A DNA stretch of 64,000 nucleotides from Eledone cirrhosa (Eukaryota), in contig OZ024743.1 of assembly GCA_964016885.1 (NCBI GenBank), forward strand, positions 263,748,001 to 263,812,000, given 5' to 3'. The position numbers and the translations under genes were made by a program. The notes below the pieces were generated by a model that saw nothing but the letters and a program-made list of their open reading frames with translations, did no database searches and was not told the DNA's origin. Positions 11,598-12,448 of the stretch are shown here, piece after piece (the first letter of the stretch is position 1; each line of letters starts with the position of its first letter).

Positions 11598-12448
11598 GAA
11601 TGTATATTTAATGTATTTTGCAATACACTTTATGCTTAATTAAAAGCATTTTGAAGACCGTATGCTATTGTTTTAGAGTAGTGACAAACTCACTTACTTT
11701 GATCTCAGCAAACAAGGGGAGATAAGCCGACAAGGCCTTGTTTCGCATTTATTGATGCTTATCAAGGCTAACTACTCCCTCCTGTCTACTGAGATCACTG
11801 ATGTTATATTCTTATAGAATTCTAGTAAATAATCAGGAACTGATTATACAGAGCGGTTGCCGGTCAGGCAGAAATTAAAAATTACAATTGGAGCTCTGAA
11901 ATAGCAATATATATATGAATATATATATATTGTATTTTGCAATACACTTTATGCTTAATTAAAAGCATTTTGAAGACCGTATGCTATTGTTTTAGAGTAG
12001 TGACAAACTCACCTACTTTAATCTCAGCAAACAAGGGTAGATAAGCCGACAAGGCCTTGTTTCGCATTTATTGATGCTTATCAAGGCTAACTACTCCCTT
12101 CTGGATACTGAGACCACTCTCCAATTCTAATTTTTAATTTCTGCCTGACCGGCAACCGCTTGAATAATCAGTTCCTGATTATTTACTGGAATTCTATAAG
12201 AATATAACATCAGTGATCTCAGTAGACAGGAGGGAGTTGTTAGCCTTGATAAGCATCAATAAATGCGAAACAAGGCCTTGTCGGCTTATCTACCCTTGTT
12301 TGCTGAGATTAAAGTAAGTGAGTTTGTCACTACTCTAAAACAATAGCATACGGTCTTCAAAATGCTTTTAATTAATCATAAAGTGTATTGCAAAATACAT
12401 TATATATACATTCATATATATATTGCTATTTCAGAGCTCCAAATCTAA
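11598..12448. mobile_element. Retrozyme-like element: about 1.6 tandem 319-bp units on the minus strand, then one inverted unit on the plus strand; three HHRs
   Basis: HHRs at 11725-11769 (-), 12044-12088 (-) and 12242-12286 (+). Flanked by (TA)n. Confidence 0.88.
12242..12286 (+). ncRNA. Type I hammerhead ribozyme, U3-A8 core variant
   Basis: agcc TTGATAA gcat-caataa-atgc GAAA caaggccttg TC ggct. Stem III is the 12-nt palindrome ACAAGGCCTTGT. A distal helix atctcagtagaca/tgtttgctgagat extends stem I. Confidence 0.88.

Follow-up and report, generated by a model that had tools for sequence, protein, structure and literature searches.

A 319-nt retrozyme insertion in Eledone cirrhosa, probably copied in trans by a PLE, with a U3-A8 hammerhead predicted to cut as a double hammerhead

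Animal non-LTR retrozymes have been described by Cervera and de la Pena (2020; PMC7229834), who, in the passages compared here, suggest Penelope-like elements (PLEs) as the carrier, and a preprint by Li, Clavereau and Pollet (2026; bioRxiv 10.64898/2026.07.22.740005) presents retrozymes, in the parts compared, as non-autonomous PLE derivatives. PLE insertions leave a footprint of their own, which the sections compared of two further papers (PMC8557442, PMC3846280) describe as copies in partial tandem with loss of 5′ sequence, a truncated copy inverted head-to-head and a 30-40-bp tail at one end, with a bias towards (TA)n in some PLE clades. According to the passages compared from Frangieh et al. 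(2024; PMC11167929), the PLE protein of an anole introduces nicks into each strand of AT-rich DNA in vitro and initiates reverse transcription from two internal positions, whose spacing is the tail; the hammerhead of this PLE is protein-dependent and dispensable for insertion in vitro. The excerpts compared indicate that such ribozymes are often weakly active or dependent on protein (PMC4209133; bioRxiv 2026.07.22.740005; PMC11167929), and among Xenopus dimers one of nine cleaved (bioRxiv 2026.07.22.740005). Natural hammerheads with a U3-A8 core have also been published and are said, in the part compared, to be active in vitro (Perreault et al. 2011; PMC3088659), and U3-A8 occurs in the min-HHRs of the Schistosoma mansoni Cercyon PLE, with ~1,300 matches (PMC4209133). 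Both the U3-A8 variant and the retrozyme class are already known.

The locus analysed here lies in a 64,000-nt stretch of Eledone cirrhosa DNA (the window). It is a single insertion, bordered on both sides by (TA)n runs, in which a minus arm at 11588-12118 meets a plus arm at 12119-12449 head-to-head; the repeat period is 319 nt. In our assessment it is very probably a 319-nt retrozyme insertion, likely copied in trans by a PLE RT-endonuclease, whose U3-A8 ribozyme would, by prediction, cut in the double-hammerhead form alone. Its features are as follows, with conservation referring to subfamilies of the wider repeat family.

11553..11597, no strand: left (TA)n-type target run, overlapping the short 3′ end of the minus arm
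11588..12118, minus strand: inverted arm, 531 nt or 1.7 tandem units, 5′-truncated at 12118
11725..11769, minus strand: type I hammerhead copy 3 (U3 11765, A8 11760, predicted cut after C17 11729)
12044..12088, minus strand: type I hammerhead copy 2 (U3 12084, A8 12079, predicted cut after C17 12048)
12119..12449, plus strand: direct arm, 331 nt or one unit plus 12 nt, terminating at the long 3′ end
12131..12190, plus strand: conserved block, lying 3′ of the long end in tandem RNA, 36 of 60 positions invariant in five subfamilies
12214..12311, plus strand: long hairpin with the hammerhead at its tip and a 17-bp outer helix (12214-12230 with 12295-12311)
12242..12286, plus strand: type I hammerhead copy 1 (U3 12246, A8 12251, predicted cleavage 12282/12283)
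12270..12281, plus strand: palindromic helix III, 12 nt, predicted intermolecular duplex -19.5 kcal/mol
12314..12434, plus strand: possible GT-AG intron, 121 nt, speculative, with donor-, branch- and acceptor-like motifs
12356..12449, plus strand: block with the highest conservation in the unit (five subfamilies agree at 62 of 94 positions), containing both 3′ end points
12424..12449, plus strand: the 26-nt tail between short and long 3′ ends, which the inverted arm lacks
12450..12555, no strand: right (TA)n target run

The exact 3′ end of the minus arm falls within 11588-11597, where it is indistinguishable from the (TA)n run; this arm stops at the short 3′ end, and the direct arm is 5′-truncated at the inversion junction, 12118/12119. 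The initial annotation had read three copies of a hammerhead core in this sequence, and these are real. One plus-strand and two minus-strand copies are exact (12247-12271 (+), 12059-12083 (-) and 11740-11764 (-)), with zero expected from 100 shuffles. The minus-strand pair sits in the 531-nt tandem arm at a spacing of 319 nt, and motif mapping returns both the period and the cleavage site, 12282/12283, that had been proposed. No ORF of at least 120 aa overlaps 11588-12449, so the RT and GIY-YIG ORF of an autonomous PLE is absent. A coding role for short frames spanning the unit end was considered and rejected, there being no long frame. The intron-like motifs are kept in subfamilies A-D, the donor is lost in F, and no spliced-form copies of 12314-12434 were found at up to one mismatch. 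In the first 22 nt of the minus arm (12097-12118) there are four departures from the family majority; elsewhere the rate is ~1%, much lower, and the excess is possibly the product of junction repair. Elsewhere in the window, a 464-bp tandem repeat at 7962-10114 comprises 4.6 copies at 99%, and a ribozyme scan found none there.

Stem I of the plus copy pairs 12242-45 with 12283-86 and stem II pairs 12253-56 with 12263-66. The core, U3 U4 G5 A6 U7 A8 A9, occupies 12246-52, with GAAA at 12267-70, U16.1 at 12281 and C17 at 12282. This is the layout of a type I hammerhead, with core (C/U)UGAN(G/A)A, GAAA, UH, three helices and open ends in helix I; the fold model places an internal loop after stem I. 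An Rfam search at gathering score gave no match. Below that score, all three copies match Hammerhead_HH9 (RF02275) weakly: each aligns across the whole model, but at 19.5-20.9 bits (E 0.03-0.07), far below the gathering score of 52.

The locus belongs to a superfamily of thousands of copies. A plus-arm query against the 3.0-Gb genome gave at least 139 matches in the best 40 of 2,119 candidates, with top identities of 95-98%, and a degenerate 35-nt unit-end pattern has 2,827 exact matches in the genome. Copies of subfamily A each lie ~1% off their majority, and the burst that produced them is therefore young, not current. Sister subfamilies share 75-88% identity along the whole unit. The more distant subfamily F has a 310-nt unit, a C3-G8 core, a 6-nt palindromic helix III and A17. 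It is very abundant (29,593 first-look candidates) and forms long near-identical arrays, many with a head-to-head switch, at L141:1-1100, L234 and L236-L255 (G000 C1 and elsewhere); it looks like the member that is active at present and makes the strongest case for a circular template. The unit is non-coding and within 150-450 bp, with GC under 50%, a type I hammerhead and tandem copies. By such features as can be tested in DNA, the element can be placed among animal non-LTR retrozymes, and the annotation's suggestion of a retrozyme-type element fits its unit size, GC, hammerhead type and tandem copies.

The 3′ ends of family arms fall at two points, the long end at 12449 and, 26 nt upstream of it, the short end. 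A first set of 210 arms contains 94 long and 71 short 3′ ends, and a second set of 140 arms contains 65 and 43, against uniform expectations of ~14 and ~9 respectively; both sets were selected with queries containing the long end, which inflates the long-end class. Raw DNA reads from two other samples are a check on the end points that is independent of locus selection: loose ends pile up behind 12423 (281 and 294) and 12442 (245 and 203) and continue into ATAT. The two fixed points appear in all four subfamilies tested. No 3′ end lies near the cleavage site, and the 5′ starts scatter across the entire unit, with those near the cleavage site (6 of 210 and 5 of 140 arms) at chance level.

These ends bear directly on a reading put forward in the initial annotation. 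The near-identical 13-mers at the start and end of the plus arm, which we locate at 12119 and 12437, had been taken as a sign of copying once around a circular or multimeric RNA. cDNA of random start made in this way, with permuted and slightly redundant ends, would account for a plus arm of one unit plus 12 nt, for the long tandems of ~6.5 units at L128 and L194 and, particularly well, for the long near-identical arrays on both arms in subfamily F; related animal retrozymes are also expressed as circles, according to the passages compared (PMC7229834). However, the 3′ ends are fixed at two points in four subfamilies and in the independent reads, and arms of 315-340 nt are a minority among long-end arms (11 of 94 and 3 of 65). 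Random permutation is largely refuted, and we hold this account to be highly improbable; a circle with a fixed internal start is compatible with the PLE explanation that we prefer. Of the two 13-mers, the 3′ one marks the fixed end that the family shares (94 of 210 and 65 of 140 arms), and the 5′ one is simply where the plus arm broke at the inversion junction. Because 3′ ends are fixed and unit-length arms are few, the terminal redundancy is a chance 5′ break without special meaning, and the circular permutation of copy ends that had been envisaged gives way to two fixed points. A read across the 12282/12283 junction would be uninformative, since joined unit-length RNA recreates the genomic tandem sequence. 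The template may have been a circle or a linear multimer, the sequences being compatible with either. Private variants common to copies occur at 1.3 and 0.57 per kb within an insertion versus 0.07 between loci, and most differences are unshared.

The two kinds of end are combined in a strict manner. Among the 125 insertions of the first set, 71 are head-to-head and 46 are single arms. The head-to-head insertions comprise 39 long+short, 20 long+other, 6 short+other, 4 long+long and 2 other+other pairs, and no short+short pair; the long/short pairing has p 5e-8 on the 43 that are fully classed. In the second set, 36 of 91 insertions are head-to-head and 26 of these 36 are long+short. The window locus is a typical long+short pair. 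TA flanks 77 of 94 long ends and 52 of 71 short ends, compared with 2 of 44 other ends and a background of 8%, and in 40 of the 71 head-to-head insertions the arms overlap at their junction, by 1-12 nt. A target-site duplication is unreadable, as both flanks are (TA)n, and the insertions have no poly(A) end. The family has a fixed 3′ end, variable 5′ truncation, partial tandems, an inverted 5′-truncated copy placed head-to-head and a tail (26 nt) on one end, all of them traits of PLE-type insertions, and fixed uneven ends in AT-repeat DNA are likely to indicate PLE copying.

A similar product might come from a non-PLE LINE through twin priming, or from foldback or satellite processes at the DNA level that resemble PLE insertion. 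LINE twin priming likewise yields 5′ inversions, and a PLE partner sharing sequence with the unit was not found in the loci screened or among four PLE 3′ regions. Twin priming, however, has a variable second start, which here is fixed 26 nt from the first and is present even in subfamily C, whose RNA lacks a clean TA run at that point; a LINE should further leave a poly(A) end, of which there is none. A satellite origin sits poorly with copies that are dispersed on many contigs with random 5′ truncation. We give these alternatives little credence and retain PLE copying as the preferred reading.

The search for such a partner took several forms, and genome-wide it covered the best candidates. 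No in-sense ORF lies upstream of the arms in 80 motif-anchored loci, the unit has no match in the four PLE 3′ regions, and comparison of the PLE pieces in the window with the family loci gave no autonomous partner sharing unit sequence. A short-frame protein search, in which the best 150 of 29,593 candidates were scored, returned 43-aa frames in F arrays in every case and no long frame. A DNA search with a subfamily F query was empty although the query came from the same genome, and so is uninformative. Several PLE families inserted in (TA)n do occur in the genome, among them a GIY-YIG fragment in the window, and in a few hybrid insertions a family arm is joined directly to a truncated GIY-YIG PLE. 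The hybrids at L031, L138 and L167 involve one PLE family and those at L124 and L078 another; four are head-to-head and L078 is in line. The PLEs in these hybrids have no sequence in common with the unit.

Several other elements in and around the window deserve description. A 5′-truncated PLE at 32900-35000 (-), which we take from its cysteine linker to be Neptune-type, has an inverted copy of its own 3′ repeat upstream, and thus a head-to-head layout too. It retains an RT piece as well as GIY-YIG at the C terminus (Pfam PF01541), with one in-frame stop at 34269-71. Another abundant PLE-like family inserted in (TA)n is represented by two pieces, at 30200-31560 (-) and at 42700-43080 (+), the latter with an intact minimal C3-G8 hammerhead at ~42876-42920, and the abundant PLE at 30380-31536 is often near family copies, yet has no sequence in common with the unit. 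At L233:1940-2500, the 3′ repeat of a second GIY-YIG PLE family terminates in (TA)n and carries, by eye, a minimal hammerhead-like motif whose stem II is mismatched at its base. Mutually similar broken RT-like frames at window positions 149-664, 2883-3941 and 51591-52301, two of which were tested without a Pfam match, presumably resemble Naiad-type PLE RTs. Remains of mobile elements also occur at 12567-13180 (-), which adjoins the right (TA)n flank and which we assume to be a LINE-like 3′ piece, at 45963-47954 (+), presumably a second RT-like region, and at 13964-15609 (-), in what we take to be helicase-like pieces. A further RT lies at 3923-5833 (+) (Pfam PF00078).

The core itself varies in a way that supports selection on the active fold. 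U3-A8 is found in 59 of 61 cores of subfamily A, all 41 of B and 40 of 45 of D, while C3-G8 is found in 46 of 51 cores of subfamily C (198 of 200 cores retained, two of low identity dropped, and 24 of 224 dropped as partial). In 80 loci chosen by end motif alone, with 14 of 104 partial matches dropped, U3-A8 occurs in 11 of 12 cores nearest A and 35 of 38 nearest B, and C3-G8 in 32 of 40 nearest C. Subfamily E, with C-like flanks, has U3-A8 in 29 of 30, its query itself having carried U3-A8. The exact hammerhead context of the window subfamily occurs 173 times, and among 100 listed occurrences 99 are U3-A8 and one is C3-A8.

Trees built from the unit place these states on separate branches. 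After 12 of 277 sequences were removed as junction chimeras, the alignment was thinned to 106 and then 54 rows, the second tree omitting one long branch and, apart from the added subfamily E rows, all rows that were neither U-A nor C-G. With columns 3 and 8 left out, the 54-row tree contains two U3-A8 clades, of 17 rows (100/98) and 13 rows (100/99), separated by C3-G8 rows, and a single clade is rejected (p-AU 0.0002), although group names were assigned after a first tree and short-patch recombination could also bear on the two-clade pattern. Positions 3 and 8 appear from these trees to have switched jointly on at least two branches, in one direction or the other; with two independent switches, the number is below the reach of a sign test. 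The annotation's proposal of a compensatory U3-A8 core is thus borne out by a sister subfamily with C3-G8 and by a double switch on two separate branches. Independent variation at the two positions, which it had named as evidence to the contrary, is not what the subfamilies display, as they switch both together.

Scattered single changes at position 3 or 8 are seen and, as expected, fit decay after insertion, apart from four cores at two subfamily D loci that are U3-G8. We considered U3-G8 as an ancestral wobble intermediate and rejected it; these loci are derived, because subfamily D is otherwise U3-A8 (40 of 45) and nested in a U3-A8 clade. In 19 hand-picked representatives with intact cores, 7 of 11 helix pairs vary on both sides, and 94% of paired cells are paired in the alignment compared with 13-38% for slid partners; the stem II base is unpaired in 5 of the 19 rows, the mismatch occurring in subfamilies E and F. 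Reads of the two other samples contain paired changes in stems I and II and, among the rows listed, no change at 12246 or 12251. Covariation of this kind supports the helices and the 3-8 pair, and with them U3-A8 as a probable compensatory core.

The predicted fold of the RNA depends on copy number. The monomer is far more stably folded than its shuffles (z -5.5), and in the energy model a lone hammerhead in its active fold is less stable by 7.6 kcal/mol than an alternative helix involving U3, compared with 4.2 kcal/mol when C3-G8 is modelled into the lone unit. The stem I strand together with U3-U4-G5 (12242-12248) resembles the palindrome of helix III in its 3′ half (12271-12281), which gives the predicted 'off' helix; for subfamily C the model yields an 'off' fold of a similar kind. 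For the two-copy minus arm of the window, the unconstrained best fold is a double hammerhead (-165.3 versus -166.2 for the ensemble), in which copies 2 and 3 are joined via a 12-bp helix III, compared with -154.0 for two single hammerheads, and the double hammerhead is likewise the best fold at locus L008. We therefore predict, from folding energies that omit tertiary contacts and Mg2+, that a single ribozyme is off and that the natural tandem is active as a double hammerhead.

It might be objected that the hammerhead is a passenger, moved by the same carrier and with the same footprint, which no longer cuts or is not needed, the paired changes having arisen from RNA folding or from chance, the latter through fixation in a few master copies. 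The hammerhead region is invariant at only 12 of 50 positions, U3 completes the 'off' helix, copies with U3-G8 reached two loci, and the PLE hammerhead is dispensable for insertion in vitro in the passages compared (PMC11167929). Yet invariance falls precisely on the catalytic positions (U4 G5 A6 A9 G12 A13 A14 A15.1), and natural U3-A8 cores are reported, in the part compared, as active in vitro (PMC3088659). The secondary structure leaves positions 3 and 8 unpaired, so the best explanation for their having changed together on two branches is the tertiary pair that the active fold forms. We judge a passenger ribozyme, with chance fixation as part of the same reading, to be rather unlikely, though deserving of real weight, and continue with a ribozyme that is predicted to act in tandem.

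We propose that movement of the element would proceed in four steps. A tandem copy would be transcribed, giving RNA longer than one unit. Adjacent hammerheads would then pair via the helix III palindrome and cut, releasing unit-length RNA that is perhaps circularised, while a lone copy would be kept off by the alternative helix. A PLE protein may next bind the conserved block around the unit end and nick both strands of a (TA)n run, with internal RT starts at two fixed sites, the long one on one strand and the short one on the other. Finally, the two cDNAs would halt at random points and be joined, often by a few matching bases, and a head-to-head, uneven-ended insertion such as that in the window would result. 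Selection in source copies would have retained the U3-A8 pair. The highest conservation across five subfamilies lies on either side of the long end, with 62 invariant positions in the 94 nt that precede it and 36 in the 60 nt that follow. Conservation past the unit end matters only on a more-than-unit or circular RNA and therefore fits internal initiation, and we infer that the block at 12131-12190 is part of the protein-binding signal. More tentatively, it is possible that a dimeric PLE protein primes the nicked (TA)n strands at two fixed sites on two RNAs, with the ribozyme remaining active through two 3-8 switches. Within this same tentative proposal, the two templates would be ribozyme-made circles and, at times, the RNA of another PLE family, which would yield the hybrids at L031, L124, L138, L167 and L078.

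The family adds insertion-footprint evidence for PLE-driven retrozyme movement, for which the literature compared, in the passages available, argues from co-occurrence and phylogeny. The strict pairing of long and short ends leads to a testable prediction for the use of the two in vitro RT starts on the target strands, and a natural series with both 3-8 states, switched twice, supports selection on the active fold and supplies natural variants. In the main texts searched, supplements aside, we found neither long/short pairing in a retrozyme nor two 3-8 switches within one genome, and a literature search for C3U and G8A returned none.

The criteria of a plant LTR retrozyme (type III hammerhead in LTRs, PBS, PPT and 4-bp duplication) do not describe this element, which is type I and has tandem and inverted arms in place of LTRs. 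It resembles animal retrozymes, as described in the passages compared, in having a ~300-nt non-coding, low-GC unit with a single type I hammerhead, copies that range from monomers to multimers, RNA with strong self-pairing and PLEs in the same genome, but has a U3-A8 core and a helix III that is a long palindrome of 12 nt. Uneven 3′ ends at fixed points, arms placed head-to-head and targeting of (TA)n have no counterpart in what those passages say of retrozymes; animal retrozymes are expressed as circles, whereas the window family is known from DNA alone, and no homologous PLE terminal repeat was found for it. PLE pseudo-LTR insertions (Arkhipova et al. 2013, PMC3846280; Craig et al. 2021, PMC8557442) and non-autonomous Chlamys elements such as MRC1 share with the family, in the sections compared, the tandems, the 5′ truncation, the head-to-head arrangement, the one-end tail, a hammerhead in the repeat and an AT-rich or (TA)n target; the window family differs in having no RT or GIY-YIG ORF and a tail of 26 nt, not 30-40. 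The same compensatory 3-8 swap occurs in published U3-A8 hammerheads, once in PLE repeats, as far as the parts compared go (PMC3088659, PMC4209133). Unlike the U3-A8 min-HHRs, stems I and II here are of canonical size and the layout is not minimal, and, in contrast to the published cases, both states and two switches between them can be traced in one superfamily within one genome.
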